Below, in pieces: positions 4,842-58,431 of a stretch of 64,000 nt of DNA. A program made the translations under genes and the position numbers. Each line of letters begins with the position of its first letter. Position 1 is the stretch's first letter. The stretch is taken from NCBI GenBank assembly GCA_005888745.1, contig VBBS01000027.1:55045-119044 (forward strand). Reading direction: 5' to 3'. The notes beneath the pieces were generated by a model. That model ran no database searches. It was given only the letters and a program-made list of their open reading frames with translations, and was not told the origin of the DNA. The stretch is from Candidatus Bathyarchaeota archaeon. Its GTDB lineage: Archaea; Thermoproteota; Bathyarchaeia; 40CM-2-53-6.

Positions 4842-6047
4842 ATGCCGAAGCTCTTCCCCGTTCAAGAGATAGGGAGTCTCGCAAAGCCCAAGTGGAGAAC
4901 GAAGGGGTTGCGACAACAACTCTCTTCGCAGGACCTCTCCGAGGCTGAAGAATGGGCTACGAAGCTGGGAATTCAGGACTTCCATGACCGAGCAAAGAGC
5001 ATTTTCAAGACCGGTGACGACAAGATGCGGGTCAAAGCGATTCTTGAACTCTCCACCTTGTATGGGCTGCGCCTCTTCGAAATCGCGGGTGTAGACAACG
5101 AAGGTGTCGGGGGAGAACAGCAACGAGTCGAAATGTACGAGCACGTAATCAAGGCCGTACAGGGAATGAACCTCCTCGGCCACGTCCACTCCTTTGACAA
5201 CAAGTACTTCAACAAGGGAGTTGCAGAGTCGAAGATCTCTAGAAAACATCCTATCTACGTGCCTGAATTTCTTGATGTCAAGAAATACGCCCACCGGGAC
5301 GTGAAGGTGCCGATTACCGGACCGTACACACTAGTAGACTGGTCCTTTAGCGGGTACTACATCCAGAAGCAACACGCCTCCTCTCCCAAGACACGGAGGA
5401 TCGAGGCAAAGCGCGAATTCCTCCTCGATATCGTAGAGCAAGTCATACGACCCGAGATCCGAGACCTAGTTGATGCGGGAGCCTCTTGGATACAGATAGA
5501 TGAGCCGGCGGTGACTACTCATCCAGAACCTCAGGAAATGGAGCTTTTCGTTGAGGCGTGGAATGAAACGGTCAAAGGGTTCAACTGCAAATTCAGTGAC
5601 CACACGTGCTACCCATCCGAGATAGGATACAAAGTGCTCTCGGAATACGCGCCGAAGCTAGACAAGTGCGACCAGCTCGCGTTGGAGTTCGCCAACCGAG
5701 ACACTTCGCGTCTTGGAGTCGACAAGGACTCGCGGGAAGGCTACGGCGACCTCAAACATTTCGTCGATGCTGGTTTCAGCGGAGAATTCGGGCTCGGTGT
5801 CGCCCACGTACACGATTTCACAGGAAACGTGTCCTCCGGTGCAGGAAAATCCGTGGGACGAGACTTTATCGAGTCTCCGGAGCTAGTGCGGGACCGTCTT
5901 CTGTTCGCTACCAGGATTGTAGGGGATCCGGCGAAAATCTGGGCGAACCCAGACTGTGGACTTCGGACCAGAACTTGGGATGTGGCCTTCGCGAAGCTCG
6001 CAAACGTCACGCATGGAGCCGAACTGGCAAGGGAGACATACCAGTGA
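4842..6047 (+). CDS. metE: cobalamin-independent methionine synthase catalytic-domain protein (MetE C-terminal type)
   Basis: Zn-ligand pattern of MetE: DHTCY (H-x-C), LALEFAN (Glu) and NPDCGLRTR (Cys). The N-terminus EIGSLAKPKW is typical of short archaeal MetE homologues. Confidence 0.75.
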   Translation: MPKLFPVQEIGSLAKPKWRTKGLRQQLSSQDLSEAEEWATKLGIQDFHDRAKSIFKTGDDKMRVKAILELSTLYGLRLFEIAGVDNEGVGGEQQRVEMYEHVIKAVQGMNLLGHVHSFDNKYFNKGVAESKISRKHPIYVPEFLDVKKYAHRDVKVPITGPYTLVDWSFSGYYIQKQHASSPKTRRIEAKREFLLDIVEQVIRPEIRDLVDAGASWIQIDEPAVTTHPEPQEMELFVEAWNETVKGFNCKFSDHTCYPSEIGYKVLSEYAPKLDKCDQLALEFANRDTSRLGVDKDSREGYGDLKHFVDAGFSGEFGLGVAHVHDFTGNVSSGAGKSVGRDFIESPELVRDRLLFATRIVGDPAKIWANPDCGLRTRTWDVAFAKLANVTHGAELARETYQ

Positions 6048-6949
6048 GACTAGGTGATCGGGCGAGGCGTCATAACCTCGTTACGGTTGAACTTATTCCG
6101 GACAGAGTGGTTACTAGCGATTTGGCTCTCCTTAGGGGAAGAGTTGACGCTATCACCGTTCCGGCCTTGCGGAATGGCCATAATGACCCAAGTTATCCAA
6201 AGTCTTTCGCGATAACGCCCCAACGCCGAAGTCTTGCTTCCGCATCTATCATCAATAAGGCTGGGATAACCGCTGTTCCCTCGCTAACATGTCGTGATTG
6301 CAGCAGGCTGGACTTGTCAACTGTCTCGAACCAAGTGGAACAAGGGCTTGAGAACGTACTGATAGTCTACGGGGACCCTTATCCAGAGCCTCGTCCCGGG
6401 ACCTATGAGTTCACCAAAACGAACGAGCTAATTCGGGAGGTCTCCTCCCTAAACGACGGAAACGACCCATGCATTGGGGCAGTGACAAACCAACACGCTG
6501 ACAACAGGGAAGGCGAAATCTCCCGAACGATATCACGAGTAGACGCGGGCGCGGACTTTATTGTCACAAACGTCGCCTTCGACTCGGAGAGTGTACTTGA
6601 CCACAGGGATTCCCTACTGGAAGCAGGGTTAGACGTGCCACTCTTCATTCAAGTCTCTATTCCGCTCAACCTAGACAATGTGTTGTTTGTGAGCCAGAAA
6701 TTCGACATACCCGTCCCGGCTCAGGTCAGGAGAAAACTTCTGGAGGATCCGACTGGAGGAAGTCTCGCTGTTGCCGCTGATGCCTACGAGGCCCTACGTG
6801 GAGAAGCGAATGGTATTCACTTCTCATACCTGTTCCGACAACGAAATCCGATTCCCACTTATCGCCATCTGCTGGAGATAATTGGGATAGCAGGCCCGAC
6901 ACTGGCTCCGCTAGCCACGTCTCCTGTGAAAACATATCCCGTTGTCTAG
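6044..6949 (+). CDS. methylenetetrahydrofolate reductase (MetF)-like protein
   Basis: VELIP...LTCRDCSRLDL..ENVLIVYGDPY..GAVTNQH..GADFIVTNVAFDSE follows the MTHFR TIM-barrel pattern. In-frame GTG 6044 overlaps the upstream TGA (GTGA). The long track ORF from 5606 is an overprinted extension. Confidence 0.65.
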   Translation: MRLGDRARRHNLVTVELIPDRVVTSDLALLRGRVDAITVPALRNGHNDPSYPKSFAITPQRRSLASASIINKAGITAVPSLTCRDCSRLDLSTVSNQVEQGLENVLIVYGDPYPEPRPGTYEFTKTNELIREVSSLNDGNDPCIGAVTNQHADNREGEISRTISRVDAGADFIVTNVAFDSESVLDHRDSLLEAGLDVPLFIQVSIPLNLDNVLFVSQKFDIPVPAQVRRKLLEDPTGGSLAVAADAYEALRGEANGIHFSYLFRQRNPIPTYRHLLEIIGIAGPTLAPLATSPVKTYPVV

Positions 6950-6983: not shown

Positions 6984-7580
6984 TTAACTGTCTTGCTTGG
7001 CTGTCTCGACCGGTAGTGGAGCGTCTTCCCCAAGCTGGAGTACTTTCTTCAGTTCTTTTTTCATGAGTGATGGGTCATGGTTGAGATTGAAGTAGTCTGC
7101 GAACGTTGTAGTCGTCCTTAGCATTCTGGTTCTTCCGATCCTCTCGTCATTAATCAGGTCCATGTCCTTCAGCTGTTTCACATGGCCGTAGGCCAGTTTA
7201 CCGCGAACCCGTACCACGTAGGACTGGGTGACAGGCTGCTTCAGAGCTATGAATGATAACGTCCGAAGGGGTCCTGGTGTTAGAAGCGGTCTGTTCGCCA
7301 GTTTTCGAACGTGCTTAGCGAATTCTGCCTTTAGCTGCATGACAAAGCGTCCGTCGGGAAGTTCCACGACTTGAATCGGACTACTGGCGGTTTTGTAACG
7401 TTCAGAAACCGCCGTTGCGATTCCGCGTATCTTGTCCTCTGATCTAGCGCCTACGACAGACCCGATCATCTTCAGGTCTAGTGGTCTTCCGGATACGTAC
7501 AGTGCAGCCTCGCAGAGCTGCTGCTGTAGGTCAGCAGTTTTCTGCTGAGCTGTGTTAGTCGAAACTTGTGTTTCCGTCGT
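6984..7580 (-). CDS. scpB: segregation and condensation protein B (ScpB)
   Basis: Winged-helix ScpB pattern. The family N-terminal motif (EAALYVSGRPLDL) is encoded upstream of the first ATG (7469). The only start-like codons in the open 38-codon extension are ACG 7580 and ACG 7577. The start is uncertain. Confidence 0.75.
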   Translation of the reverse strand, partial: TTETQVSTNTAQQKTADLQQQLCEAALYVSGRPLDLKMIGSVVGARSEDKIRGIATAVSERYKTASSPIQVVELPDGRFVMQLKAEFAKHVRKLANRPLLTPGPLRTLSFIALKQPVTQSYVVRVRGKLAYGHVKQLKDMDLINDERIGRTRMLRTTTTFADYFNLNHDPSLMKKELKKVLQLGEDAPLPVETAKQDS

Positions 7581-31226: not shown

Positions 31227-32735
31227 GTGGAGTTGCGTGAGAATGATGTTAAAGTCCTGAGAACTCTCCGGGACGCGGGCGGAATCGCTTCAGCTGAAGA
31301 TATAATCCGGAAAGCCGGCATAGTCGACGCGGCTGTTGCCCGCGCGTCACTCACACTGTCAGAACTAGGCCTAGTCAAGGAACAGACAACAAGGACCACC
31401 GAAATATTTTGTACCGAGGAAGGACATGATTATCTGGCTAATGGACTACCCGAGCGAAGGGTCGCCACGGTAGTTCACGATGCCGGGGGAAAACTCTCGG
31501 TCAGCGAAGCGGTCCAGCAAGCGGGTCTGCCACAAGACTTTGTCTCAATAGTCACAGGCTGGATTGCCCGCAAACGCTGGGGAAAGATCGAGAAAACAAG
31601 TTCAGGCAATATTCTACTGATCTCGAAAAACCCGCCCAAAGACGAAGATGAAGAGGTTCTCGAGAGAATTGGCCATGTCAGCATTCCAATAGAAGAATTG
31701 CCGAGCAACCTGAGACAAGCAGCCGATAGACTCCTCAAGAGAAACATCCTGGCCTCGAAGGAACGAGTACAGCGGAAACTACAGATCACCCCTCAAGGGT
31801 TGGACGCGATTCCGGCCCAAGCATCTGTCGATGAGATTAGCAGTCTAACAAGCGAGATGATTCTCTCTGGAGACTGGAAGAGAGTCCACCTTCGATCGTA
31901 CAATGTTTCTTCACCTGTCCCTTCGCTCAGTCCTGGAAAGTATCATCCTTACTTGCGATTCTTGCGGAGGGTCAAACGGAAGCTTGTTGCGCTCGGGTTC
32001 AGAGAGGCTGTCGGACCCCTGGTCGAAACCGCCTTCATCAACGACGACTGCCTCTACATGCCGCAAGATCATCCAGCGAGAGAAATCCACGATCTCTACT
32101 ACCTGAAACACCCGTCCAAAGCGAGCCTGGAATCATGGAAGGAAATCGTGGAGAAGGTAGCGCAGACCCACGAGAACGGCTGGAAGACAGGGTCCACCGG
32201 ATGGGGCTACAAGTACTCGAGAGAAGAAGCCTCCAAACTAGTCCTTCGGAGCCACGGCACCGCTCTAAGTGTCCGGTCAATGATTTCCAAGGACCTTCAG
32301 ATTCCAGGCAAATACTTTGCTATCGCGAGGTGCTTCCGGCCCGAACTCCTCGACAGAACTCACTTGACAGAATTCAACCAGGCGGAAGGGATCGTTCTCG
32401 ATCCCAGCCTCAACCTACGCAATCTCCTCGGGGTCTTGGAGATGTTCGCTCGCGAGGTCGCGGGGGCCGACAGGGTCCGTTTCAAACCCGACTACTTTCC
32501 ATTTACAGAACCCAGTGTCGAGTTGCAAGCCTACAAGGAAGGATACGGATGGATGGAGTTCGGCGGCAGCGGAATATTTAGACCCGAAGTCACAGAACCC
32601 CTCGGCATCAAAGTACCCGTGATCGCGTGGGGGCTCGGAATAGACAGGCTGTTCATGATGAACCAGCAGATCCAGGATATCAGACAGCTCTTCACAACTG
32701 ACCTCGAATGGATAAGGCAACAGAAGGTCGGCTAG
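31227..32735 (+). CDS. pheS: phenylalanine--tRNA ligase alpha subunit
   Basis: Class II motifs (FRPE..D.THLTEFNQAEG, GSGIFRPEV) and the long N-terminal winged-helix extension typical of archaeal/eukaryal PheRS alpha. Confidence 0.9.
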   Translation: MELRENDVKVLRTLRDAGGIASAEDIIRKAGIVDAAVARASLTLSELGLVKEQTTRTTEIFCTEEGHDYLANGLPERRVATVVHDAGGKLSVSEAVQQAGLPQDFVSIVTGWIARKRWGKIEKTSSGNILLISKNPPKDEDEEVLERIGHVSIPIEELPSNLRQAADRLLKRNILASKERVQRKLQITPQGLDAIPAQASVDEISSLTSEMILSGDWKRVHLRSYNVSSPVPSLSPGKYHPYLRFLRRVKRKLVALGFREAVGPLVETAFINDDCLYMPQDHPAREIHDLYYLKHPSKASLESWKEIVEKVAQTHENGWKTGSTGWGYKYSREEASKLVLRSHGTALSVRSMISKDLQIPGKYFAIARCFRPELLDRTHLTEFNQAEGIVLDPSLNLRNLLGVLEMFAREVAGADRVRFKPDYFPFTEPSVELQAYKEGYGWMEFGGSGIFRPEVTEPLGIKVPVIAWGLGIDRLFMMNQQIQDIRQLFTTDLEWIRQQKVG

Positions 32736-32736
32736 A

Positions 32737-34422
32737 ACGCCCTCAGTCCAATTCTCTCTGGCGGATCTGGAAGATCTCCTTGGACAGAAGGTTCCCCGAG
32801 ACGAAGACGGGCTCAACCAGCTCCTCGCCTACGTCAAGGGCGACGTGGAATCCCTCGACGAACAGAATGACAGCGTCAGCATCGAGGTCAAAGACAGCAA
32901 CCATCCCGACATCTGGTCGGTAGAGGGAATCGCACGCGCTCTCCGCACTCATCTCGGTCTTACCAAGCCCAAGGCTCCAATCCTTACCGGAAAATCCGGT
33001 CTGAGAGTCACAATAGATCGTAGACTAGGTGCAGTCCGGCCTTTCATCGCAACCTCCATCGTGAGAAACGTCAAGCCAAGCGAGGACGCCCTGAAGAGCT
33101 GGATAAGCCTACAAGAAAAAATGGACCTCACGTACGGTAGAAAGAGAAAACGTGCCTCAATCGGGTTCTACCAAGCCGACCTGATCAAGTCACCTCTTCG
33201 CTACACTGTTGGCAATCCTGAAGACACAGGGTTCGTCCCCCTAGGCTCAACAGAGAAGATGTCTCTCCGAGAGATTGTAGAGAAGCATCCTAAGGGAATT
33301 GAGTATGGAGGAACAATCTCATCTTTCAAAGACTGGCCGCTCCTGGAGAACGGCGACGGCAAGATTCTCTCTCTTCCACCAATCATCAACTCCAACGATC
33401 TGGGCAAGATCGCCTCAGATACGAAGAACATCCTGGTAGAGGTCACAGGGACGAATATCGAAACCGTAGGCAATACGCTGAAGATAGTCGTAGCCGCTCT
33501 CGCCGAAAGAGGAGGCAAGATCTACAGCTGTACTCAAACCTACACGGACAAGTACTCCAAGCCGATAACTACGCCAGACCTGAAATCCAGCATCAAGGAA
33601 TTATCAGTCAACTATGCTAACAGACTTCTTGGATCCACGTTCAAACCAGCAGAGATGATACGATCCTTAGTGAGAGCCGGCCATCCTGCTCGACAGGTGA
33701 GTAAGGACATCTTGCGCGTGGAGAGCCTCTGCTACCGTATCGACATCATGCATCAAGTTGACCTCGTCGAGGATCTCGCGATCGCACTTGACATTAACAG
33801 GCTAGATCCTGAATGGCCGAGAATCTGGACTCTCGGGGGACTAGCGCCTGAAACAGATAGACACGAGACTCTTGCCGAAATCATGATCGGGCTAGGATAC
33901 CAGGAGCTTCTGACCTACAGTCTGACATCCCCTGAAGTCTTCGTTGACAAGATGGGCATAAAACGCGAAAAATACGCGGAGCTGATGAATCCTAAGATGT
34001 CAACCCATACCGCATTGAGAACCTGGCTTCTACCCAGCATTCTCAATTTGCTCAAGGACAATACTCATGTCGATTATCCTCAGAGAGTCTTCGAGATCGG
34101 ACCTTGCGTAGTTGTCAAAGAAAATGGCGAAGGTCAGACGGAAACTCGATACAAGATCGCTGCGGCGACAGTTCACACAGCAGCCGGCTTCACTGAGATT
34201 CGATCTTGCCTCGACACACTCCTCGCAAGCATCGGGGTCAAGTTCGAGGTCGTGCCCACGGTTCAACCGAGCTTTCTCGAGGGACGCACTGGGGAGGTGA
34301 TGTCAGGGCAAGAGCGACTAGGAGTAGTTGGAGAGTTGCACCCGAAGATAATCCGTGCTTGGAGTCTCAGCCTCCCCGTCGCAGCTTTCGAACTAGAGAT
34401 TCCACCAATGGAGGCTGGTTAG
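32737..34422 (+). CDS. pheT: phenylalanine--tRNA ligase beta subunit
   Basis: Archaeal PheT architecture. The conserved N-terminus PSVQFSLADLEDLLG is encoded upstream of the first canonical start (GTG 32845). The only start-like codon after the in-frame stop (32713-15) is ACG 32737. Confidence 0.85.
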   Translation, partial: TPSVQFSLADLEDLLGQKVPRDEDGLNQLLAYVKGDVESLDEQNDSVSIEVKDSNHPDIWSVEGIARALRTHLGLTKPKAPILTGKSGLRVTIDRRLGAVRPFIATSIVRNVKPSEDALKSWISLQEKMDLTYGRKRKRASIGFYQADLIKSPLRYTVGNPEDTGFVPLGSTEKMSLREIVEKHPKGIEYGGTISSFKDWPLLENGDGKILSLPPIINSNDLGKIASDTKNILVEVTGTNIETVGNTLKIVVAALAERGGKIYSCTQTYTDKYSKPITTPDLKSSIKELSVNYANRLLGSTFKPAEMIRSLVRAGHPARQVSKDILRVESLCYRIDIMHQVDLVEDLAIALDINRLDPEWPRIWTLGGLAPETDRHETLAEIMIGLGYQELLTYSLTSPEVFVDKMGIKREKYAELMNPKMSTHTALRTWLLPSILNLLKDNTHVDYPQRVFEIGPCVVVKENGEGQTETRYKIAAATVHTAAGFTEIRSCLDTLLASIGVKFEVVPTVQPSFLEGRTGEVMSGQERLGVVGELHPKIIRAWSLSLPVAAFELEIPPMEAG

Positions 34423-38539: not shown

Positions 38540-40552
38540 CTAGCTCCCAGCTATGGCCGCCAACCCCGTGAGCAATGCCCCCCGGAGTCGGCTAGATAAG
38601 CCTTGTCCGAAATCAGGCCTAGAAGCATACGCGGGCGGTGCTTCAACCGGATGGTAATATTGCGACGCTGGCTCGCGCCTTCGCCTTGATACTAGAGCTA
38701 TCAGAACTACGAGGAACAAGAGGGCTAACCCCGCAATGAGGTAGATGAAGGGAATCCCCACGACCTTCAGATTAGTCAGGTTTGGAATCCCATTTATCGT
38801 AACGGTCAAAGTGTTTTGCCCTGAGGCGAACCCGGGCTTCGAGGCCTGAACGGTGACAGTTGGGTTCGAGGCCTGGAGAGGCGTAGTGTAGACGGCCGTG
38901 TAGTTACCGTTACCGCCATCAGTTGGGCTTGAGAAGCTTCCACCAGCCGAGGATGAGAGAAAGATCGTGGCCCCTGTTACGGGGCTGGTTCCGTTTGTGA
39001 CTCGAATCATCAGGACAATCTCACCTCCCGGAGTGATCGAAGCAACGCTAGGAACGGCAGCTACGGTCAAAGGCGGAAACGGATTCAGAGTGATCGTCGT
39101 CAGAGCAGATCCACTTATGAAACCATTTTCACTCGCAATTACCTGAATTATCGAGCTGACAAGAGAGTTCACAAGCGGTGCTGTGAAATTGGACGAATAT
39201 ACACCGATGCTGCCCATGATAGGTTGAGTGAACCCGCCGCCAGCCGATGAGCTAAGAGCAAGAGTCACACCGGCCTGAGGAGTCGACCCATTCGTAACCG
39301 TGATGGTCAGAATCGAAACCTGTCCAGGCTTCAAGCTCGTCACGCTTGGAAATATCGTCGCCTGCAACCTAGGTGCGATTACGCCCAACGCGTAGACCTT
39401 CGTATCCCATGACCCGAAGAAGGCCCTAGAATCCGCGATGGCAGGGGACGAAGATATGCCGGCACCAGTCGTGTACTTCCAGAGCAAAGCCCCCCCAGTC
39501 GCGTTCAGCGCGTAAATGCTGTGGTCACTCGAGCCGAACAGTAGAGTATTCGAGCCGAGCGCCAGGGCTGGAGAAGATGAAATTCCCCCGATCGTACCTG
39601 CTTTGGGATACGTCCAGAGCTGGGCACCGGTCGTGGCGTTGAGCGCGTATAGAATGCCTCTGCCTGTTCCAAAATAAACTGCTCCATTGCTGACCGCTGC
39701 AGAAGTAGCGTTGAATGCTCCGATGTTGAACGTCCAGATAATGGCACCAGAAGTCTGGTTCATCGCGAGAAACCTATTGCTGTCAGCTCCAACGTACACC
39801 CTACCGTAAGCAAGAGCTGGAGCCGTGCTTATCGACGCCGCCACTCCAATAGGAACCTTCCATAGCTGAACACCCGTGGTCTCGTTAACCGCAACAACAT
39901 AGCCATTGTTTTGTCCGAAGACAACTCGACCATTATTGACCGAGGGAGATGACTTGATCGTGTCATCTCCAACATACTGCCAGGCGACCGTGTTGTTTGT
40001 ATAGACTGCCAAGAGAACTGAGTTGAACCTGACAAACCAGGTTCCGTAGAAGATCTTCCCACCAGCATAGACTGGCGAGGATGTGATCGGACTGATGTTC
40101 GCCCTCTGCCAGATCACCGATCCTGTCTGCTCATTGAGAGCATAGACCATCGAGTTTCTTGAGGCGAGATAGACTACGCCGTTCGCGACTGCAGGTGTCG
40201 CGTAGATCGGAGCTGAAGTGCTGAAGACCCACCTCTGAGCCCCGTTGTACTCGTCGAGCGCGTAGAGGTTTCCATCCCAAGATGGGATCAAAACCAGCCC
40301 GTCAACAACGACGGGGGAGGGATACACGTAGGATCCAGTTGTGAAAGTCCACATGAGGTTTGGCCCACTGGGCGAGGATGCTGGAGTAGTTCCGGTTCTC
40401 AGAGCGTCGTGATGGAACATCGTCCAGGGATAATCTGTAGGACCCGGAGAAGCGGCGGGAAAATGTTGCGGAGTCGCTGGTGTTTTGCTAGCGGGTATTC
40501 CTATGCTGAGAAGGAAGAGGGAAAGGATCAGAATAACAACTGCCCATCTCAA
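38540..40552 (-). CDS. exported PQQ-like beta-propeller repeat protein with Ig-like domains and a C-terminal membrane anchor
   Basis: Signal/anchor MRWAVVILILSLFLL, many repeats of the type G.VY.GS.D..VYALNA.TG..LW, two T/S-rich Ig-like modules and a C-terminal TM helix. Confidence 0.7.
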   Translation of the reverse strand: MRWAVVILILSLFLLSIGIPASKTPATPQHFPAASPGPTDYPWTMFHHDALRTGTTPASSPSGPNLMWTFTTGSYVYPSPVVVDGLVLIPSWDGNLYALDEYNGAQRWVFSTSAPIYATPAVANGVVYLASRNSMVYALNEQTGSVIWQRANISPITSSPVYAGGKIFYGTWFVRFNSVLLAVYTNNTVAWQYVGDDTIKSSPSVNNGRVVFGQNNGYVVAVNETTGVQLWKVPIGVAASISTAPALAYGRVYVGADSNRFLAMNQTSGAIIWTFNIGAFNATSAAVSNGAVYFGTGRGILYALNATTGAQLWTYPKAGTIGGISSSPALALGSNTLLFGSSDHSIYALNATGGALLWKYTTGAGISSSPAIADSRAFFGSWDTKVYALGVIAPRLQATIFPSVTSLKPGQVSILTITVTNGSTPQAGVTLALSSSAGGGFTQPIMGSIGVYSSNFTAPLVNSLVSSIIQVIASENGFISGSALTTITLNPFPPLTVAAVPSVASITPGGEIVLMIRVTNGTSPVTGATIFLSSSAGGSFSSPTDGGNGNYTAVYTTPLQASNPTVTVQASKPGFASGQNTLTVTINGIPNLTNLKVVGIPFIYLIAGLALLFLVVLIALVSRRRREPASQYYHPVEAPPAYASRPDFGQGLSSRLRGALLTGLAAIAGS

Positions 40553-41263: not shown

Positions 41264-41956
41264 TTGCTCACCGAGTCGCAGTCAGAGATGCTTGGGATAC
41301 TGTTCGGAGATGGGTCGATGTCTGAGAATCACAACTCCGTTCAGATCGTCATAACCGGTCACAAATTCGATGACGTAGAGTACCTAATTGGCCGCGTAGG
41401 TCCGATGTTCGCGGAACTCTTTGAAATGCCCCTCAAGGTACATCTAGTGAAAGATGAAAATACGATGATCCTCTACGCTTACTCCAAACGAATTGCCCTG
41501 ACCCTTCACGAATGGGGAATGCCTTTTGGCCGAAAAAAACTGGCCTGGCTCACACCGCACGTCGCATTGGATGAAGTATCTTTCGTCAGAGGCTTATTCG
41601 ACACAGATGGCTGTGTCTATCGCAAGTATGGCCCTTATTTGCAAATCCAGTTTAAGTTCGCTTCCCTTTCGCTCCTTGAGTACGCGAGGGAGTGTCTGGT
41701 AAGACTCGGCCTGAATCCCACATCGATCAGGTGCGACGATACGAAGTTCAGGTTCTATCTCAGCAGACAAGCCGAGGTAGACCATTTCTTTAGGGTCGTA
41801 GAACCCAAGAACCCAAAGCATCTTAATCGTTTCCAAAATGCTTCTCGGAATCGGTCCTACCGCCCATACACACATCGTCCTGAAGCACTCAGAAGAATTG
41901 GAAACCAACCAAGCCTTATAGGACCAATTCTGTGGAAAACACACTCGGTGGGGTAA
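41264..41956 (+). CDS. free-standing LAGLIDADG homing endonuclease (double-motif)
   Basis: Two motifs: MLGILFGDGS and VRGLFDTDGC. It ends 27 nt upstream of the tRNA-Trp gene. Confidence 0.8.
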   Translation: MLTESQSEMLGILFGDGSMSENHNSVQIVITGHKFDDVEYLIGRVGPMFAELFEMPLKVHLVKDENTMILYAYSKRIALTLHEWGMPFGRKKLAWLTPHVALDEVSFVRGLFDTDGCVYRKYGPYLQIQFKFASLSLLEYARECLVRLGLNPTSIRCDDTKFRFYLSRQAEVDHFFRVVEPKNPKHLNRFQNASRNRSYRPYTHRPEALRRIGNQPSLIGPILWKTHSVG

Positions 41957-41983: not shown

Positions 41984-42164
41984 GGGGCCGTAGTCTAGCC
42001 AGACCCACTCCGGGTCCTAGTAAGGGACGACGACGGGCTCCAGAATCTATGAAACATGCACACCGACCAATATCGAGGGATGAGGAAATTCGGGAGCGCG
42101 TGAAGATACCCGTAGACGAGGGACTCGGCGGATGTCGTGGGTTCAAATCCCACCGGCCCCACCA
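41984..42164 (+). tRNA. tRNA-Trp (anticodon CCA) interrupted by three putative introns; CCA end encoded
   Basis: Acceptor GGGGCCG (41984-90) pairs with CGGCCCC (42154-60). The T arm is GTGGG-TTCAAAT-CCCAC. The anticodon arm is ACGGG (42033-37), loop CTCCAGA, and CCCGT (42109-13). A cloverleaf results only if about 22 nt (D-loop, ~42001-42022), 64 nt (37/38, 42044-42107) and 18 nt (45/46, 42116-42133) are removed. Confidence 0.75.
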
Positions 42165-42619: not shown

Positions 42620-43081
42620 CTACTTCTCTGTTCGATGGAGATGTTTCGCGTCTAACGCCTTGGCGCGCTGTATTAGTTTGGCGTCAATTCCAGTAGTTAC
42701 TGCACTGCTCGAAAACCAGGAGTCGAGTATCTCTTTTGCGATGGCGGTCGAGGTGCTTCTGAGGCTCATAGCCAATACGTTGGCGTCGTCCCACATTCGA
42801 GCACCTTTCGCGGTTTCCGCGTCCCAGCACAAGGCGGCTCGGACCTCTCGGACCTTGTTGGCGGCAATCGTAACCCCGGTTCCAGTCCAACAGAACAGAA
42901 CACCCTGGTCCGCTCTCCCGCTGCTCACGTCTAGTCCTACTTTCTCTCCAACATCAGGCCAGCCCATCGCCTCTCCTTTCAAGGGACCAAAGAGGGTGAC
43001 AGTGTGACCCCTCTTCTTCAACTCCTCGACGACATAGTCTGTCAGAACAGTTTTCTCGTCGCTTCCAACAGCGATCTTCAA
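42620..43081 (-). CDS. rpiB: ribose-5-phosphate isomerase B (RpiB/LacAB family)
   Basis: MKIAVGSDEKT..., GVLFCWTGTGVTIAANK with the catalytic Cys region. Confidence 0.8.
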   Translation of the reverse strand: MKIAVGSDEKTVLTDYVVEELKKRGHTVTLFGPLKGEAMGWPDVGEKVGLDVSSGRADQGVLFCWTGTGVTIAANKVREVRAALCWDAETAKGARMWDDANVLAMSLRSTSTAIAKEILDSWFSSSAVTTGIDAKLIQRAKALDAKHLHRTEK

Positions 43082-43170: not shown

Positions 43171-43665
43171 TTGAGTAGGCCTTCAAAGCAGGTAAGCACT
43201 TCCAAGACCACTCTCTCCAGTCAGATGATGCCTGTGGACGCCAATCCGATGGGAAACGTGCACGGGGGCACAATTCTCAAACTTGTCGATGTCGCCGCCG
43301 GAGTCACGGCCCTGCGACATGCGAGAACTATTGTGGTCACCGCAAGCATCGACCGTATGGACTTTTACCATCCAGTCTATGTCGGCAACCTTCTCAACTT
43401 CAAGGCCTCAGTCAACTACGCTGGAACAACCTCGATGGAAGTCGGAGTAAGGATAGAAGCTGAGGACCTGAAGACTGGTAGAATAACACACACCGGCTCA
43501 TCCTACCTCACCTATGTTGCTATAGATGAGAACGGACAACCAGTCGAGATTCCCGACGTCATCCCGGAGACACTTGACGAAAAACGACGCTGGAGAGAAG
43601 GAAAAAAGCGAAGGGCCGAACGCCTCAAGATCCTACAAGATCGAAGGAGCAAGGGCAAGGCCTAG
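43171..43665 (+). CDS. acyl-CoA thioesterase (hotdog fold, YciA/ACOT-like)
   Basis: ANPMGNVHGGTILKLVD...TASIDRMDF..PV.VG....A.V.Y.G.TSMEVGV. Confidence 0.8.
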   Translation: MSRPSKQVSTSKTTLSSQMMPVDANPMGNVHGGTILKLVDVAAGVTALRHARTIVVTASIDRMDFYHPVYVGNLLNFKASVNYAGTTSMEVGVRIEAEDLKTGRITHTGSSYLTYVAIDENGQPVEIPDVIPETLDEKRRWREGKKRRAERLKILQDRRSKGKA

Positions 43666-43677
43666 GGTCGACAAAGA

Positions 43678-44562
43678 ACGAAAGTCGCAATTGTAGGGTT
43701 CGGCATGATGGGCCGGCAGATAGCCCAAGTATTCGCCCAAAATGGCCACGAGGTCGAGGCCACGGATGAGGATCAGCAAGCACTGAAGGCGGGGCTCAAC
43801 GAAATAGCAGACGGGCCCTACGGATTGCACGCGGCTGTTTCAAAAGGAAAACTGGCTGCAGAGCAAGCTCACAGGACTCTAGCAGCCATCAAGACAAGAC
43901 CCGAGCTAGCGGATGTTTGCAAGAACTCGACTCTTGTGATCGAGGCAGCCTTCGAGGAGCTGCAACTCAAACAGAATCTGTTTCACAGAATTGAATCTGC
44001 TGCGCCACCAACTGCGATCATAGCATCAAACACTTCAACCTTGAGCCTGGACAAGATCACCCAAAGAATCTCAAGGAAGGACAGAACGATTGGAATGCAC
44101 TTCTTTAATCCAGCCCAGCTCACAAAACTCGTCGAGATCGTCCGAGGAACGTCGACATCACCTGAAACACTAGAGAAAGCGTCCCAAATCGTCCGGGAGA
44201 TCGGTAAGACCCCTATCCTCGCCCAAGATGAGCCTGGTTTCATCGCCAACCGTCTCGGACTCACCCTCTACATGGAGGCTTCAAGACTGCTAGAGGATCG
44301 TGTCGCAAGTCTCTCTGACATCGACACGTGCATGAGACTCGGATACAACCATCCAATGGGACCCTTCGAACTAGCCGACTTCGTCGGACTTGACACCAGA
44401 CTTCGGAATCTAGAATCACTCTACAAGTCAACGAATGAAAGTAAATGGATACCACCTCAGATTCTAAGAGAGATGGTCCAACAAGGATACCTCGGCGACC
44501 CTGCTAGAAAGAAGACGAGCAAGGGCGGATACTACGAGTATCTCCGGATAAAGCGAGGATAA
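43678..44562 (+). CDS. 3-hydroxyacyl-CoA (3-hydroxybutyryl-CoA) dehydrogenase
   Basis: The HADH family core is present (NTSTLSL, HFFNPA). The Rossmann beta1-GxGxxG element KVAIVGFGMMG starts upstream of the first ATG (43705). ACG 43678 directly precedes KVAIVG. Confidence 0.85.
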   Translation, partial: TKVAIVGFGMMGRQIAQVFAQNGHEVEATDEDQQALKAGLNEIADGPYGLHAAVSKGKLAAEQAHRTLAAIKTRPELADVCKNSTLVIEAAFEELQLKQNLFHRIESAAPPTAIIASNTSTLSLDKITQRISRKDRTIGMHFFNPAQLTKLVEIVRGTSTSPETLEKASQIVREIGKTPILAQDEPGFIANRLGLTLYMEASRLLEDRVASLSDIDTCMRLGYNHPMGPFELADFVGLDTRLRNLESLYKSTNESKWIPPQILREMVQQGYLGDPARKKTSKGGYYEYLRIKRG

Positions 44563-44611: not shown

Positions 44612-45016
44612 TTGTTATTTGGTGTGTTAACTTCGTTCGTCTCCAGCCGTTACCTTCGAAGTATGACTCTTCACATGTTAGGCGGTCGTCGCATGAACCT
44701 GTCACGTTGGGATGAGGGGGATGACTCCGATCAGGTGACGGGTCAGAAATGGGATAGCCGGTTGGCTGGCCACCGTAAAATCCTTGCTTGGCAATCGGCC
44801 AAGTTACCACGCTATGGGCGTGAGGGGGCGGTTGAGGTTCGACCGTTCCCTGCCAAAAAGAGACTACATGTCTCTGAGGCGCAAGGGCTCGCAGGTGAAG
44901 CAGTGAAGAGGAACCCGCCGACGACGGTAATCCTCCGAGCAGATGAGAGCAAGTCTAGTCCCCCAGCAACGGAAGACTCGACAGAACCCAGAACACAACC
45001 CACAAACCATCGATGA
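44612..45016 (+). other. unassigned segment: either a 134-codon ORF of no recognisable family or a structured RNA
   Basis: The ORF is open across the whole HADH-ECH gap and stops 3 nt before the ECH start. The same segment has complementary GT-rich 5' (44610-28) and AC-rich 3' (44992-45008) ends plus several local hairpins. Confidence 0.25.
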
Positions 45017-45019
45017 TGA

Positions 45020-45793
45020 TTGCTGTACACACACATTCTAGTTGAGACTGAGCCGCCTATCGGAATCATCCGACTGAACCGTCCGAAAGCTCTCAACGCC
45101 CTCAACTTCGAACTTATCCAAGAAACAGTGGAGGCACTCGAAGGCTTCGACAAAGACGACAGGATCAAAGCGACGATCTTGACAGGGGGAGACGACGCCT
45201 TCTCTGCTGGAGCAGACATCAAGGAACTAGCGGAAGCGACTCCTGTCACCTTGATCGAGGAGAACAAGTTCGCCCTCTGGGATCGCTTGAAGAAGATCGC
45301 AAAGCCGATCATAGGAGCGGTCAGCGGCTACATCTACGGAGGAGGATGCGAACTGGCAATGAATTGCGATATCATCATTGCATCCGAGACCGCACGATTC
45401 GCACAGCCTGAAATCAACATCGGAATAATGCCCGGAGCTGGCGGGACACAGCGTCTCACAAGAACCATCGGAAAGTATAGGACAATGGAGATGGTTCTAA
45501 CCGGACAACCCATGACCGCGCGAGAGATGGAGAAACACGGTCTCGTCAACAGAATCGTCCCCGTCGAGGCCTACTTCGATGAGGCACGCAAACTCGCCAT
45601 GCAAATCGCCCAGAAAGCCCCCATAGCCACACGGCTAGCGAAAGAGGCGGTGCTGAAAGCTCTCGACACACCGCTCGAGGAAGGGCTACAATTCGAGAGG
45701 AAGAATTTCTACCTCCTCTTCTCAACAGAGGACATGAAAGAGGGAATGAAAGCCTTCACGGAAAAACGGCCCCCCAGATTCAAAGGACGATAG
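45020..45793 (+). CDS. enoyl-CoA hydratase (crotonase family)
   Basis: ITLNRP-type start (IIRLNRPKALNAL), FSAGADI, GGGCELAM and the active-site Glu regions. Confidence 0.85.
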   Translation: MLYTHILVETEPPIGIIRLNRPKALNALNFELIQETVEALEGFDKDDRIKATILTGGDDAFSAGADIKELAEATPVTLIEENKFALWDRLKKIAKPIIGAVSGYIYGGGCELAMNCDIIIASETARFAQPEINIGIMPGAGGTQRLTRTIGKYRTMEMVLTGQPMTAREMEKHGLVNRIVPVEAYFDEARKLAMQIAQKAPIATRLAKEAVLKALDTPLEEGLQFERKNFYLLFSTEDMKEGMKAFTEKRPPRFKGR

Positions 45794-48077: not shown

Positions 48078-49235
48078 GTCTTAGGCCGCATCGGAATCGT
48101 TGGAGTTGGACATTCAAAGTTCGGAAAAAGGAGCGACGCCTCCCTCCGAGAGCTAGCATTCGAAGCGTACAGTTCCGCCCTAGATGACGCCGACATCGAC
48201 TCTTCAAAAATAGACGGTTCAATAGTTTGCTCCGCCACTCACTACGACAAGCAACGATCGCCTGCAGGTGTTGTTGCGGAATATCTCGGACTCAATCCCC
48301 AACCAACATTCAACGTTGAGGCAGCCTGCGCCTCCAGCGCTGTTGGCCTTCGGACCGCGTGGGCGCTTGTCTCATCAAAACTTCATGATGTGGTGGCCGT
48401 TGTGGGGGTGCAGAAGATGACCGAACTCTCCTCGGAGGAGATCCAGGAGCTCATGGGCAGAGCAGGGGACGTCATGTGGGAGTCTCCCTTCGGAACAACA
48501 ATGCCCGCATACTACGCCTCCTATGCTAACGCCCACATGGCCAAGTACGGAACTACAGAGGAACAAATGGCGCTCGTGTCGGTGAAGAACCGAAAATACG
48601 GATCCAAGAATCCTAACGCCATGTTTCAAAAACCCATCCAATTGGAAGAGGTCCTAAAATCGCGAATGGTATCTTATCCTCTAAAACTATACGATTGCTG
48701 CGCCAATGCTGACGGGGCGGCATGTCTGCTCATTACTAGTGCCGAAAAAGCAAAGAAAATTTCTGATAGACCCGTATGGATCTCCGGGCTTGGCCTGGCT
48801 TCGAGTCCCATGTCGCTTGCTGGAAGAAAAGGTCCATTGACGAGTTTCGATGCCACAAGAAATGCGGCGAGAACGGCATACGAAATGGCCAATATCAAAC
48901 CACACGACGTACATGTGGCGGAGGTTCATGACTCTTTCTCGGTAACAGAAATCATCAATTATGAAGACCTCGGATTCGCACGACCTGGAAGGGGTGCTAA
49001 GCTTCTGGAAAACCAAGGCACGGAGCTCGGCGGGAGAATCCCCGTCAACATCGACGGAGGCTTGATTTCCAAAGGCCATCCAGTCGGAGCCACAGGCGCG
49101 TCCCAGATCTTCGCATTGGTCAAACAACTACGGGGGGAAGCGGGTAGCGTTCAGGTCGACGGCGCTAAGATTGGTCTCGCACAGAACATAGGGGGAATAG
49201 GAATGTACTGCTCCGTTACGATCTTGCGCTCATGA
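48078..49235 (+). CDS. thiolase (SCP-x / archaeal acetyl-CoA C-acetyltransferase type); start codon unresolved
   Basis: The frame is open from 48063. The N-terminus RIGIVGVGHSKFGKR and the catalytic-Cys region NVEAACASS lie upstream of the first canonical start (GTG 48390). The C-terminal GHPVGATGA is also present. The start given is approximate (GTC 48078, TTA 48081 or ATC 48090). Confidence 0.85.
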   Translation, partial: VLGRIGIVGVGHSKFGKRSDASLRELAFEAYSSALDDADIDSSKIDGSIVCSATHYDKQRSPAGVVAEYLGLNPQPTFNVEAACASSAVGLRTAWALVSSKLHDVVAVVGVQKMTELSSEEIQELMGRAGDVMWESPFGTTMPAYYASYANAHMAKYGTTEEQMALVSVKNRKYGSKNPNAMFQKPIQLEEVLKSRMVSYPLKLYDCCANADGAACLLITSAEKAKKISDRPVWISGLGLASSPMSLAGRKGPLTSFDATRNAARTAYEMANIKPHDVHVAEVHDSFSVTEIINYEDLGFARPGRGAKLLENQGTELGGRIPVNIDGGLISKGHPVGATGASQIFALVKQLRGEAGSVQVDGAKIGLAQNIGGIGMYCSVTILRS

Positions 49236-49281: not shown

Positions 49282-50208
49282 TTGCAGGTGGACATTCAAG
49301 AGTTGACCCCCATTCAAAGCTTCGGCAGAAGAATTCGAGCCTATGATAAAGCCACACGCCTCGCAAAGGAAGGTCGCCCTGTCACTGAAATCTCGAAAGA
49401 GACGGGAACGCCTGACGCTACCATCAGGGGATGGCTCGTAAACGGTCGAAAACCTTGGACCCGCTGCGAACTCTTCAAACCAACGTACTCTGATCAATTA
49501 ACATATGTTATCGGTGTTTACATGGGAGACGGCTCGATTTCCCGATGGAGAAATCGTTTTTTACTGCGATTAGATGTCAAAGACAAAGAATTCGCCGATA
49601 AGTTTTCTTCAACATGCGCACATGTTCTGGGTAGGAAACCATATTCTGTGAGGCATGTCAGGGATAGGGACACATACGAGACTATCATTTCAAACGCGTC
49701 TTTCTGCAAGTTCCTCAACCGAGGCCTCACCCACCTGGATCGGTATGTACGGGAGCATCCCTCTGGCTTTGTTAGAGGTTTAGCTGATAGCGATGAGTGC
49801 CCCACTGTGACAACAACAAAAAAGCGGGGCAAACCCTGGTTCTTCGTCCAAGTTGTAGTAGCAACATCCAAGAGCATACGCTTACTGAGCTATACTCGGA
49901 CGATCCTGAGGGAATGCCTCGGACTCAAAGCGACGCTAGTGTACAAAGGCAAGCCAAGACCCAGTGTGTTCAAGAACAAGTTGCTCCGTTCAAGAAAGAG
50001 GGTCTTTGACCTTAGGATATCGCGCTTTGGTGACGTGAAACGATTCTCCCGGGTTGTTGGTTTCGAATTGGCTCGGAAACAAGAGAAGCTTGCCGCTGCT
50101 ATCTTCGTCCGTGAAGGATTTGGTTCTGGTCAGGATGCGGTGAAAGAGTGGACCCGTCGCTGGGAGCATGGCACCACTGAGTGGATTCTCAAGAAAGGAG
50201 TGGACTAG
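49282..50208 (+). CDS. LAGLIDADG homing-endonuclease-like protein with N-terminal HTH
   Basis: Motifs YVIGVYMGDGS and FVRGLADSDEC. The N-terminal EGRPVTEISKETGTPDATIRGWL is HTH-like. It sits between the thiolase and DUF35 genes. Confidence 0.7.
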   Translation: MQVDIQELTPIQSFGRRIRAYDKATRLAKEGRPVTEISKETGTPDATIRGWLVNGRKPWTRCELFKPTYSDQLTYVIGVYMGDGSISRWRNRFLLRLDVKDKEFADKFSSTCAHVLGRKPYSVRHVRDRDTYETIISNASFCKFLNRGLTHLDRYVREHPSGFVRGLADSDECPTVTTTKKRGKPWFFVQVVVATSKSIRLLSYTRTILRECLGLKATLVYKGKPRPSVFKNKLLRSRKRVFDLRISRFGDVKRFSRVVGFELARKQEKLAAAIFVREGFGSGQDAVKEWTRRWEHGTTEWILKKGVD

Positions 50209-55643: not shown

Positions 55644-56051
55644 TTGTGGCAGGCGTATGACAAGTCAGCTTTGGAACTTGGAGATCTCGAGGCAGCTGTC
55701 CTCGGGACAGTTGTTCGGCTTGGCAACGCTTCTGCCCGCCAAGTCGCTCAGGACCTGCATGCTACCCGTGGACTCGCATACACTACAATCAGTACAACGC
55801 TGGATCGTCTTTACAGGAAGGGGATCTTGGCCCGTGATGAGGCTGTTGGCAGAGGAGGGTCCAGATACGTGTATCGCCTTCACTCCGAGGACAAGGTCAA
55901 GGGTCGAGTCGTGAAAGGATTCGTTGACAGGTTGCTCACAGCCTTTGGACCCAGCATTATCTCGACGTTGCATGACTACATGGATGAGATTCCAAAGGAG
56001 GACCTGAAGAAGCTGGAAGAAAGAGTTCGTAGGGAGTCCGGGCAACGATAA
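55644..56051 (+). CDS. BlaI/MecI/CopY-family transcriptional repressor
   Basis: LEAAVLGTVVRLGNASARQVAQDL......YTTISTTLDRLYRKGIL.R winged-helix pattern. Confidence 0.75.
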   Translation: MWQAYDKSALELGDLEAAVLGTVVRLGNASARQVAQDLHATRGLAYTTISTTLDRLYRKGILARDEAVGRGGSRYVYRLHSEDKVKGRVVKGFVDRLLTAFGPSIISTLHDYMDEIPKEDLKKLEERVRRESGQR

Positions 56052-56956
56052 GCCTGGAACTGTACTCGCTCTACTTCCTTTCGACAGCTACCCTGGGAAT
56101 TGTAGCAACAGTTCTGATAGTCCAAATTGCTTCCTATATCGCCTACCGATCAAGTGTGGGAAATCCCTCTCGCAGATCCAGCCTCCTATATCCGATACTA
56201 TCCTCTTCTGTTTTCTTCTGGTCGTTTCTTGGAACTAGCCTTGTAGTGTGCACGCTCTTCCTCAATATGTACGAGTGGCAATCACAACGAGTGATAAGAC
56301 TCGTGTTTGGAAGTTCGCTGGTAGCATCTATCGGAATCTCCTCTCTCATGTCCCTTATTGCTCGAAGATACGCGTTCCCTAGAATGCTTGGGGGAATGAT
56401 CGCAGGAACATTCTCGAGCTCTAGACTGAGCGAAACATGTGCGGAGCTATGCAACAAGATGGGTATCAAAGGAGTCGACCTTAGAGAAGCTAGGGTGGGA
56501 AACGCGTTTTCTTTGGACAATGGGAGTTGGAAGGTCGTTGCCGTATCTCCCGAGCTGGTGAGTTCCATGTCACCGGCGGAAGTCGAGGCGGTCATTGCTC
56601 ACGAGATCTCTCACTTGAAGAACAAGGATTCTCGAGAGAAGGGACTTGCAAGGCTGGCTAAACTGGCCTTCGTTTTTGACCCCGTGCTGCATCTTGTTGA
56701 GGCTGCGGTCCACAGAGAACGTGAACTCCTCGCCGACCAGTTGTCAGTGGAATACACTCAGAAGCCGTTGGCACTCGCATCAGCTTTGCTGAAGGTTCAT
56801 TCAGCCTTCCACGCCCCATTGCCTGGGCCTGGAGCCGGATTGTTTGTAGGTCGAAAGACAAGAGGTCTCTTGAGCAGGTATCCCGACCTTGATCGAAGAG
56901 TCCAGCTGCTAATTGACATGGACCGAGAGATGAAGACTCAGACGATCCCCGCCTGA
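56045..56956 (+). CDS. BlaR1-type (M56/M48) membrane zinc metalloprotease, no sensor domain
   Basis: HEISHL (HExxH) plus downstream E(RE)LLAD, and several TM helices. The first canonical start is GTG 56156, but a further hydrophobic helix is encoded in frame upstream. ACG 56045 overlaps the BlaI stop. Confidence 0.6.
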   Translation, partial: TISLELYSLYFLSTATLGIVATVLIVQIASYIAYRSSVGNPSRRSSLLYPILSSSVFFWSFLGTSLVVCTLFLNMYEWQSQRVIRLVFGSSLVASIGISSLMSLIARRYAFPRMLGGMIAGTFSSSRLSETCAELCNKMGIKGVDLREARVGNAFSLDNGSWKVVAVSPELVSSMSPAEVEAVIAHEISHLKNKDSREKGLARLAKLAFVFDPVLHLVEAAVHRERELLADQLSVEYTQKPLALASALLKVHSAFHAPLPGPGAGLFVGRKTRGLLSRYPDLDRRVQLLIDMDREMKTQTIPA

Positions 56957-57025: not shown

Positions 57026-58431
57026 ATGCTGATCGGGGGAGAGTGGAAGGACAGCGCAAATGGCGCTGTTTCATCAGTTCTTGATCCTTCAAACAACGTA
57101 CAAGACAGGACGCGAAAGCTGCAGTCGTGAGTGCGAAGATCGCGCTGGAGTCGGCCGGCTGGGTCGACATTGATCCCAGCAAGAGAGGGCGTCTCCTAAC
57201 TAAGCTCACAACTCTGGTCAGGGAGAATTCAGAGCAGCTGGCAAAGCTTGAAACCATGAGTGAGGGGAAGACTCTCCGAGAGTCTAAGGGTGATGTTGCC
57301 TGGGCGGCCAGGGCGTTCGAGTACTGGGCAGGACTGGCGGACAAGGTTGAAGGAGAAACCATACCTGTTCCGCCGAGACGTCTGAACTACACTCTTCGTG
57401 AGCCGCTAGGCGTAACGGTCCATATTGTTCCTTGGAATTATCCGATCGCGCTTGCTGCTAGAAGTTTGGCACCGGCAATTGCAGCAGGGAATACTGTTGT
57501 CGTGAAACCGTCTGAGATTACTCCTCTTACAGCGATTATGCTGGGAGATCTAGCGCTTAAGGCCGGCATCCCCAAAGGTGTTATCAACGTTGTAACTGGA
57601 TCAGGTGCTGAAGTAGGCGAAGCACTTGTGTCGGACCCGCGAGTGGACGGGATAGTTTTCACAGGGTCCGCTGAGACAGGAACGCAGGTGATGGAGTCAG
57701 CCGCGAAAAATGTTACAAGGGTACTTCTGGAGTTAGGCGGTAAGAACCCGCATATTGTCTTCCCTGACGCCGACTTGGCGAAGGCCGCTAAGAGCGTGAA
57801 GGAAGGCATTTTCACCAATGCTGGACAAATGTGCTGGGCCGGATCTAGGGCATTCATTCACGAGAGCATATACGATGATTTCGTAAAGGACCTCGTCGCC
57901 AAGACCCGAGCGATAAAGGTCGGGCCTGGAAGAGATGATACCAGCGAGATGGGACCCTTAGCCTCAAAGGCTCGGCAAGACGTGGTTCTCGGGTTTGTCA
58001 AGGACGGCCTCGAAGAAGGGGCAAGTCTTCTCTGCGGGGGGAAGAAACCATCTGACCCAGGACTGCAGAAGGGAAATTTCGTCGAGCCCACCATTTTCGA
58101 GAACGTCAACGGGAAGATGAAAATCGGGTGCGACGAGATTTTCGGACCTGTTCTGGGCCTTACCCAGTTCAAGACTCTCGACGAGGTTGTTGCTATGGCC
58201 AATGAGACAGATTATGGACTATACGGGGGAGTCTGGACGAGCAATTTGAAAGTCGCTCATGAACTCGCTGTTCGTCTCCAGGTCGGTGGACTAGCCGTGA
58301 ACGAGTATTTGGTGACCTTTCCGCAGACCCCGTTCGGCGGCTACAAGGACAGCGGAATAGGACATGAAAACGGCATACGCTCGTTAGAATTCTACACACG
58401 AACCAAGAATGTCTCGATAAACCTTTCCTAG
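57026..58431 (+). CDS. NAD(P)-dependent aldehyde dehydrogenase, N-terminus frameshifted
   Basis: The ELGGKNP and GQMCWAGSR catalytic motifs lie in the main ORF (57127..58431). The family N-terminus MLIGGEWKDS...LDPS is in another frame starting at ATG 57026. Confidence 0.8.

Follow-up and report, generated by a model that had tools for sequence, protein, structure and literature searches.

A candidate ACG start codon for a 3-hydroxyacyl-CoA dehydrogenase and other operon-internal genes in soil Bathyarchaeia

Where does translation begin when the conserved N-terminus of a protein lies upstream of the first ATG in its frame? The question is raised by a stretch of 64,000 nucleotides (nt) from an uncultured soil archaeon of the Candidatus Bathyarchaeota (GenBank assembly GCA_005888745.1, contig VBBS01000027.1, positions 55,045 to 119,044 of the forward strand; hereafter the window), in which a gene for a 3-hydroxyacyl/3-hydroxybutyryl-CoA dehydrogenase is publicly annotated from an ATG at 43705..43707 on the + strand. 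An earlier note on this DNA had placed the start at an ACG upstream, at 43678..43680 (+). Comparison with related loci leads us to consider it very likely that translation of the dehydrogenase begins at this ACG, whose column holds ATG, TTG, or GTG in other orthologues. Read from the ACG, the full coding region would span 43678..44562 (+), or 294 codons plus stop; the annotated ATG, which is followed directly by the next ATG at 43708, gives a 285-residue product (P0001).

The dehydrogenase start region

The dehydrogenase follows a gene for a 4HBT-family acyl-CoA thioesterase (43171..43665, +; Pfam 4HBT, E=1.3e-19) with a TTG start, in the column of which the thioesterase orthologues have ATG or TTG. 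The thioesterase stop, TAG at 43663-43665, is in frame with the dehydrogenase in the window, and 12 nt separate it from the ACG. Re-reading the sequence, we obtained the same frame as the earlier note: the TAG is followed by GGT CGA CAA AGA ACG AAA GTC GCA ATT GTA GGG TTC GGC and then by ATG (43705) ATG GGC, which translates as G R Q R T K V A I V G F G M M G. As the note had also said, ATG, GTG, and TTG are all absent from the 13 codons between the TAG and ATG 43705; we add only that one of them, ATT at 43690, is nominally a permitted rare start in translation table 11. That table adds CTG, ATT, ATC, and ATA, such as the AUU of infC, and does not include ACG.

The product of this gene matched the Pfam profiles 3HCDH_N (PF02737; E=8e-60, 202 bits versus a cut-off of 22) and 3HCDH (PF00725; E=2.5e-25, 89 bits versus a cut-off of 22.1), and its best matches in the PDB were 3-hydroxybutyryl-CoA dehydrogenases, with E values from 1e-64 to 1e-58. 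The segments ASNTST, GMHFFNPA, KLVEIV, and GFIANR aligned with the same motifs in PDB chains 3mog and 9fbd, and we take them to have the catalytic roles of S-N-T-S, G-x-H-F-F-N-P (with the catalytic His), the Glu of L-V-E, and G-F-x-x-N-R in the 3HCDH family. The genes nearby encode the thioesterase, two enoyl-CoA hydratases, an EthD protein, and a thiolase, and thus form a beta-oxidation-like cluster.

The NAD(H)-binding motif GxGxxG is present as G F G M M G at 43696..43713 (+), in alignment with the G-x-G-x-M-G of solved enzymes. The eight codons for K V A I V G F G that follow the ACG (43681..43704, +) encode strand beta1 and the first two glycines of the dinucleotide-binding loop. Position 1 of the 3HCDH_N profile falls on the Lys right after the ACG, and residues 2-5 onward of the solved 3-hydroxybutyryl-CoA dehydrogenases align to the same Lys. 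The complete beta1-GxGxxG-alphaA motif (KVAIVGFGMMG) is found in the dehydrogenase only if translation begins at or before 43681. ATG 43705 encodes the fourth residue of GxGxxG, and a start at this codon would therefore lose strand beta1 and two of the three glycines, a consequence that the earlier note had drawn and that the Pfam and PDB alignments bear out. The NAD site of a Rossmann fold needs beta1 and the GxGxxG glycines, and a protein without beta1 and two of the glycines could not form it. All public gene calls nonetheless use ATG 43705, and the window holds at least one damaged gene, an aldehyde dehydrogenase with a 25-nt deletion, as would fit a decaying dehydrogenase whose upstream similarity is a relic. 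The loss of the NAD site, together with the conservation described below, makes both a true start at ATG 43705 and decay of the gene very improbable.

The ATG-started 285-residue product is 100% identical to an NCBI protein annotated as Candidatus Bathyarchaeota archaeon and was found on contigs of three independent assemblies. Two more independent assemblies of this organism, L001 from the European Nucleotide Archive and L002 from the Joint Genome Institute, carry the same ACG. An error of sequencing or assembly that turned ATG into ACG has in its favor only the prior expectation that metagenome-assembled genomes contain errors; it is refuted by the recurrence of this base in three independent assemblies and in at least 20 divergent relatives that come from separate projects, and we give it next to no weight.

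Conservation of the ACG among Bathyarchaeota

The dehydrogenase locus was taken from species-representative genomes and metagenome contigs, and the start regions were placed in register. Start-column counts cover 98 Bathyarchaeota loci, and counts bearing on selection cover 22 distinct ACG-bearing sequences. The start column was occupied by ATG in 64 loci, ACG in 27, TTG in 4, and GTG in 3, such that the ACG aligned to the canonical starts (ATG, TTG, or GTG) of 71 other Bathyarchaeota orthologues. In a neighbor-joining tree, the ACG-bearing dehydrogenases formed one clade whose outgroups have ATG, and within the clade a single nested subclade was back to ATG.

The ACG was invariant in all 22 distinct sequences, although their synonymous sites are close to saturation and only 1 of 53 fourfold-degenerate sites was invariant. 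T was found in at least one sequence at 79% of the synonymous sites with a majority of C, yet the ACG was still fixed. Within the ACG clade the mean pairwise synonymous divergence (dS) was 0.83, and the ratio of nonsynonymous to synonymous divergence (dN/dS) was 0.09, from which we conclude that the dehydrogenase is functional throughout; the nested ATG subclade had much the same dN/dS, 0.11. The eight codons after the ACG are under purifying selection, having retained K-[VIL]-[AT]-[IV]-[IV]-G-F-G through synonymous changes among the ACG-bearing sequences. Both observations speak against a start at ATG 43705 or a decaying gene, as the dN/dS is low across the clade and the eight codons upstream of this ATG keep their amino acids while 52 of the 53 neutral sites vary. 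The alignment to 71 canonical starts and the invariance in 22 sequences uphold the proposal of the earlier note that ACG 43678 gives the dehydrogenase the N-terminus of its family. These comparisons show that the ACG has been passed down and kept within a clade of soil Bathyarchaeia and that the dehydrogenase coding region begins at it.

In 21 of the 22 ACG-bearing relatives, no canonical codon lies between the in-frame stop and the ACG. A weak codon nearby could in principle serve as the start, such as AAG directly after the ACG (+1) or ATT at +4 (43690 in the window). AAG is found at +1 in 20 of the 22 ACG-clade sequences, and ATT, a table-11 start, at +4 in 19 of them. The +1 codon is AAA in the window and in L099, however, and the +4 codon is GTT in L005 and L086 and ATC in L113. 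As ATT and AAG vary among relatives, only the ACG occurs in every sequence and lines up with the canonical starts, including the ATG, of relatives; a start at ATT would in addition cost half of strand beta1. A start at a nearby codon is for these reasons unlikely.

The spacer between the thioesterase stop and the ACG likewise bears on a further possibility, namely that the TAG is read through, either by pyrrolysine insertion or by leaky termination, giving a thioesterase-dehydrogenase fusion. The TAG at 43663 is in frame with the dehydrogenase in the window, as this would demand. The spacer is 12 nt in 8 of the 22 sequences but 11 nt in the other 14, and thus the thioesterase stop is mostly out of frame with the dehydrogenase. 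The thioesterase stop is TAA in L113, L099 has an additional in-frame TAA one codon upstream of the ACG, and the pheS stop that precedes a second ACG-started gene, described below, is also out of frame. The frame data refute a readthrough fusion as a general mechanism, and we consider it highly improbable.

Other ACG starts and how the codon may be read

All long open reading frames (ORFs) of the window were screened for a conserved N-terminus preceding the first canonical codon. The ACG at 32737..32739 (+) is the candidate start of pheT, which encodes the beta subunit of phenylalanyl-tRNA synthetase (PheRS), and is located 1 nt past the pheS stop, TAG at 32733-32735, which is out of frame with pheT. 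The first canonical codon lies 36 codons downstream of this ACG. The same column holds ACG in six further genomes, L163-L166 (77-92% identity) and L167 and L168 (58% identity), and in the seven genomes the ACG is always 1-2 nt past the pheS stop. In L163-L166 there is only GCT AGA ACG between an in-frame stop and PSVQF, and more distant PheT relatives begin MPSVQF; the N-terminus expected from an ACG start in the window is (M)PSVQFSLADLEDLLGQK. Some of the genomes with ACG at pheT carry ATG at the dehydrogenase, so the ACG trait is not bound to one gene or clade.

On the opposite strand, scpB has a candidate ACG start at 7577-7575 (-) that overlaps the 3' end of scpA by 23 nt. The Pfam ScpB match begins upstream of the first ATG of the gene. 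Relatives of ScpB begin MEAQVS or METQVS, and the window has ACG GAA ACA CAA GTT TCG in register with them. The ACG is one of a tandem pair, ACG ACG (7575-7580, -), the second of which matches the ATG of nearly all relatives. By these alignments, ACG marks the starts of pheT and scpB as well. The earlier note had called the dehydrogenase the cleanest case of a recurrent ACG; the recurrence is borne out by pheT in seven genomes and by scpB, whereas pheT is arguably the cleaner case.

A fourth candidate, a BlaR1-like M48/M56 peptidase gene downstream of a gene for a BlaI-like repressor, has a non-canonical start within 56045..56056 (+), either ACG 56045 or CTG 56054. Its first canonical codon is 37 codons on, past a conserved N-terminal hydrophobic stretch. 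The ACG overlaps the repressor stop by 7 nt, and the CTG is 2 nt past that stop. L087 and L147 have kept both the ACG and, three codons on, the CTG, which in L147 is part of a CTGA overlap with the upstream stop. We downgraded this case, as the comparison leaves it ambiguous between ACG and CTG. An ACG start in another ORF, termed Cluster 15, was discarded when the ORF proved to be an antisense shadow.

A genome in which several genes carry ACG in place of the ATG of their relatives shows the genomic signature of plant organelles, in which C-to-U editing of mRNA makes AUG from ACG, as in chloroplast ndhD and psbL. Editing of this kind could likewise turn ACG into AUG here, and the A-G-A found directly before the ACG in both the dehydrogenase and pheT could be a recognition element. 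The upstream context shared by these two genes is absent at scpB and the M48 peptidase, however, and mRNA C-to-U editing is not known from archaea, nor did our literature search turn up any. Considering ACG codons only, we saw no general sign of editing, since relatives have Thr opposite internal ACG codons in 69 of 88 columns; organelle-style editing would leave its signature at internal codons also. Nor would C-to-U editing to AUG explain the CTG found at other start columns, which fits near-cognate decoding. Editing is therefore improbable, if slightly less so than the other alternatives. The same alignment of window ACG codons to Thr in 69 of 88 columns rules out reassignment of the codon, and the sole column of the 88 with a majority of Met is the dehydrogenase start.

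Another possibility is that ACG is read as a cognate start by a second initiator tRNA dedicated to it, with anticodon CGU, or by some other factor particular to the lineage. The persistence of ACG over a dS of about 0.8 and its occurrence in an essential gene suggest efficient rather than leaky use, as such a tRNA would provide. To our knowledge, no initiator tRNA with this anticodon is known. A scan of the window and of 41 related loci, which cover a small part of each genome, found none, and the mix of ATG, TTG, GTG, CTG, and ACG at orthologous columns resembles graded near-cognate reading by a single tRNA. We hold a dedicated tRNA or factor to be very unlikely.

We favor near-cognate ACG initiation on coupled cistrons as a trait of this lineage, to which we assign a probability of roughly 0.6. 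ACG differs from AUG at the middle base only, and under this reading the ordinary initiator Met-tRNA (anticodon CAU, with a middle-base mismatch) would read ACG as a near-cognate start. Decoding would be set in the archaeal aIF2/aIF1 initiation complex on a ribosome positioned at the ACG by a Shine-Dalgarno (SD)-like element, by translational coupling to the upstream cistron, or by both. The N-terminus of the protein would be Met, and the weak ACG codon would set a low or stoichiometrically tuned output.

To assess coupling, we counted a gene as tightly coupled if its start fell anywhere from a 30-nt overlap with the preceding co-directional gene to 15 nt past the stop of that gene. All 4 of the 4 ACG candidates were among the tightly coupled genes, which make up 18 of 63 genes (hypergeometric P=0.005). 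The ACG genes are operon-internal, with starts ranging from a 23-nt overlap to 12 nt downstream of the upstream stop. The positions of pheT (+1 nt) and scpB (23-nt overlap), and likewise that of the M48 peptidase, fit the stop/start spacing of termination-reinitiation coupling, which is established in archaea (PMC6728339, PMC10666635). Pairs of subunits of heteromeric complexes, as are pheS/pheT and scpA/scpB, are enriched for such coupling (PMC10666635, PMC6728339). If ACG initiation holds, weak restart codons may serve to fix the proportions of subunits made from coupled operons.

A purine-rich SD-like element is located at 43664..43672 (+), 6-14 nt upstream of the dehydrogenase ACG, and reads AGGGTCGAC in the window and AGGTCGATC in most relatives. 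The energy of its duplex with the archaeal 16S 3' end averaged -8.9 kcal/mol in the ACG-bearing orthologues. We rejected the idea that a stronger SD element compensates for the ACG; although the means differ (-8.9 versus -4.9 kcal/mol), the nested ATG subclade has the same element, and the difference is hence confounded by phylogeny. As an aid to the ACG start the element is suggestive only, and it is a feature of the clade. No hairpin that might pause ribosomes downstream of the ACG was found, the minimum free energy z-scores of single sequences being +0.4 to +0.7.

Several considerations weigh against near-cognate initiation at ACG. All genomes compared are metagenome-assembled, and the case for ACG initiation is a comparative one. 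ACG typically has only a few percent of the efficiency of AUG in eukaryotes and a negligible efficiency in bacteria, and reliance of the essential pheT on ACG initiation would be surprising. The coupling statistic uses a provisional gene list, and 1 of its 4 ACG cases, the M48 peptidase, may use CTG. In the window itself the SD-like element is weaker (-5.9 kcal/mol), and the nested ATG subclade also carries it. The dehydrogenase spacer of 11-12 nt exceeds the overlaps of strongest coupling; in Haloferax, coupling is already reduced at a distance of 12 nt, like that of the dehydrogenase, and is abolished at about 20 nt (PMC10666635). Finally, reviews of archaeal initiation list only AUG, GUG, and UUG (PMC7531240).

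Our full-text literature search found no report of ACG starts in archaea. ACG initiation as proposed here would be a variant of non-AUG initiation not previously described for archaea, rather than a new kind of system. In eukaryotes, e/aIF2-type initiation uses ACG with Met-tRNAi, in the rank order CUG>GUG>ACG, and eukaryotic and viral ACG starts include yeast ALA1, adeno-associated virus VP2, Sendai virus C', and the upstream ACG of FMR1 (PMC5666671). The archaeal cases resemble these in that a single-mismatch codon is read, presumably by Met-tRNAi via an e/aIF2-type factor, and in that CUG and ACG are the favored non-canonical codons there, as are CTG and ACG here; the two consecutive ACG codons of scpB recall the tandem ACG ACG of ALA1. 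They differ from the eukaryotic and viral examples in that ACG would be the sole start of chromosomal housekeeping genes in a prokaryote, on polycistronic messages whose cistrons would depend on SD elements and coupling without scanning or a Kozak context, and in that ACG is conserved over deep divergence and does not yield a minor isoform.

As with the alternative starts GTG and TTG of table 11, a weaker codon replaces ATG here and its identity is conserved per gene; unlike them, ACG is absent from the table, is passed over by standard gene callers, and does not figure among the starts listed for archaea (PMC7531240). The ACG genes resemble archaeal and bacterial cases of termination-reinitiation in following a co-directional gene at distances from a 23-nt overlap to 12 nt downstream. 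Published cases, by contrast, use ATG, GTG, or TTG in overlaps of the ATGA/TGATG type, a near-cognate restart codon has not been described among them, and the dehydrogenase spacer, at 11-12 nt, is among the longest that still support coupling.

Start-codon usage, annotation, and other features of the window

In the provisional list of 63 window genes, the starts were ATG in 26, TTG in 22, GTG in 10, ACG in 4, and TTA in 1. TTG thus begins about one-third of the genes, for example at 45020, at 45797, and in the genes at 42620-43081 (-) and 38540-40552 (-). TTG was also kept gene by gene among orthologues, in 68/68 for ECH1 (enoyl-CoA hydratase), in 24/25 for rpiB, and in 18/18 in a further case. 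This gene-by-gene conservation suggests that selection acts on the strength of start codons in the lineage.

CTG occupied the start column in relatives for four families whose orthologues have ATG, GTG, or TTG: DUF1512 (L141, L150, L152, L154, and L156), EthD (L137, L152, and L157), thiolase (L010 and L083), and pheS (L166). Such starts cause gene callers to shorten genes, as with L166 pheS, called at 296 instead of about 502 residues. The start column of thiolase (48081-48083, +) holds TTA in the window, and ATG (15), TTG (2), or CTG (2) in relatives. The TTA has two mismatches to ATG and could reflect a mutation that weakens the start, a variant, or an error. Under near-cognate initiation, the working start-codon set of the lineage would be ATG, TTG, and GTG together with ACG and probably CTG, which matches the hierarchy of near-cognate codons in eukaryotes. 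It seems probable to us that soil Bathyarchaeia have an expanded initiation code in which ACG and CTG are regular, selected starts on coupled cistrons, including the essential pheT.

Gene callers restricted to ATG, GTG, and TTG systematically shorten proteins with ACG starts. In the public protein collection, N-terminally shortened calls made up 89 of the 120 best homologue clusters of the dehydrogenase, called from the internal Met of ATG 43705, and 100 of the 120 closest clusters of PheT. Shortened calls lose cofactor-binding motifs and N-terminal domains, and both the metabolism reconstructed and the structures predicted for a widespread soil group are distorted. If ACG initiation is true, it would extend the archaeal set of start codons, with ACG as the sole start of housekeeping genes that include a tRNA synthetase and chromosome-segregation subunits, and it would mean that the archaeal aIF2/aIF1 machinery can work with a eukaryote-like permissiveness for near-cognate codons. 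The lineage would then offer a natural system for studying how the eukaryote-like initiation factors of TACK archaea set the stringency of start-codon choice.

Two further occurrences of ACG in relatives were noted. L163 has an ACG near 12740 at the start of an M24 peptidase gene for which the window has ATG, a difference that may involve an insertion or deletion, and L094 has ACG where the window has ATG at 44693, in an ORF of 107 residues without a known family.

The aldehyde dehydrogenase gene mentioned above (57026-58431, +) is split over two frames. Relative to L140 it is missing 25 nt, which removes QIIAEVPRG and shifts the frame, and it is either a pseudogene or an assembly artefact.

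A tRNA-like gene at 41984-42164 (+) has a normal acceptor stem, a T arm, and an encoded CCA, as well as about 90 nt of extra internal sequence, presumably one or more introns; it was missed by ARAGORN and by the Rfam tRNA model. Its G1-C72 acceptor end identifies it as an elongator and rules out an unusual initiator tRNA at this site. Adjoining it is a LAGLIDADG_3 ORF (41264-41956, +), and a second LAGLIDADG_3 ORF is located at 49282-50208. A 440-nt overlap between the ORFs 4842..6047 and 5606..6949 was dismissed, since it reflects nothing more than a frame that stays open upstream; the start of the MTHFR-like gene, GTG 6044, forms a GTGA overlap.

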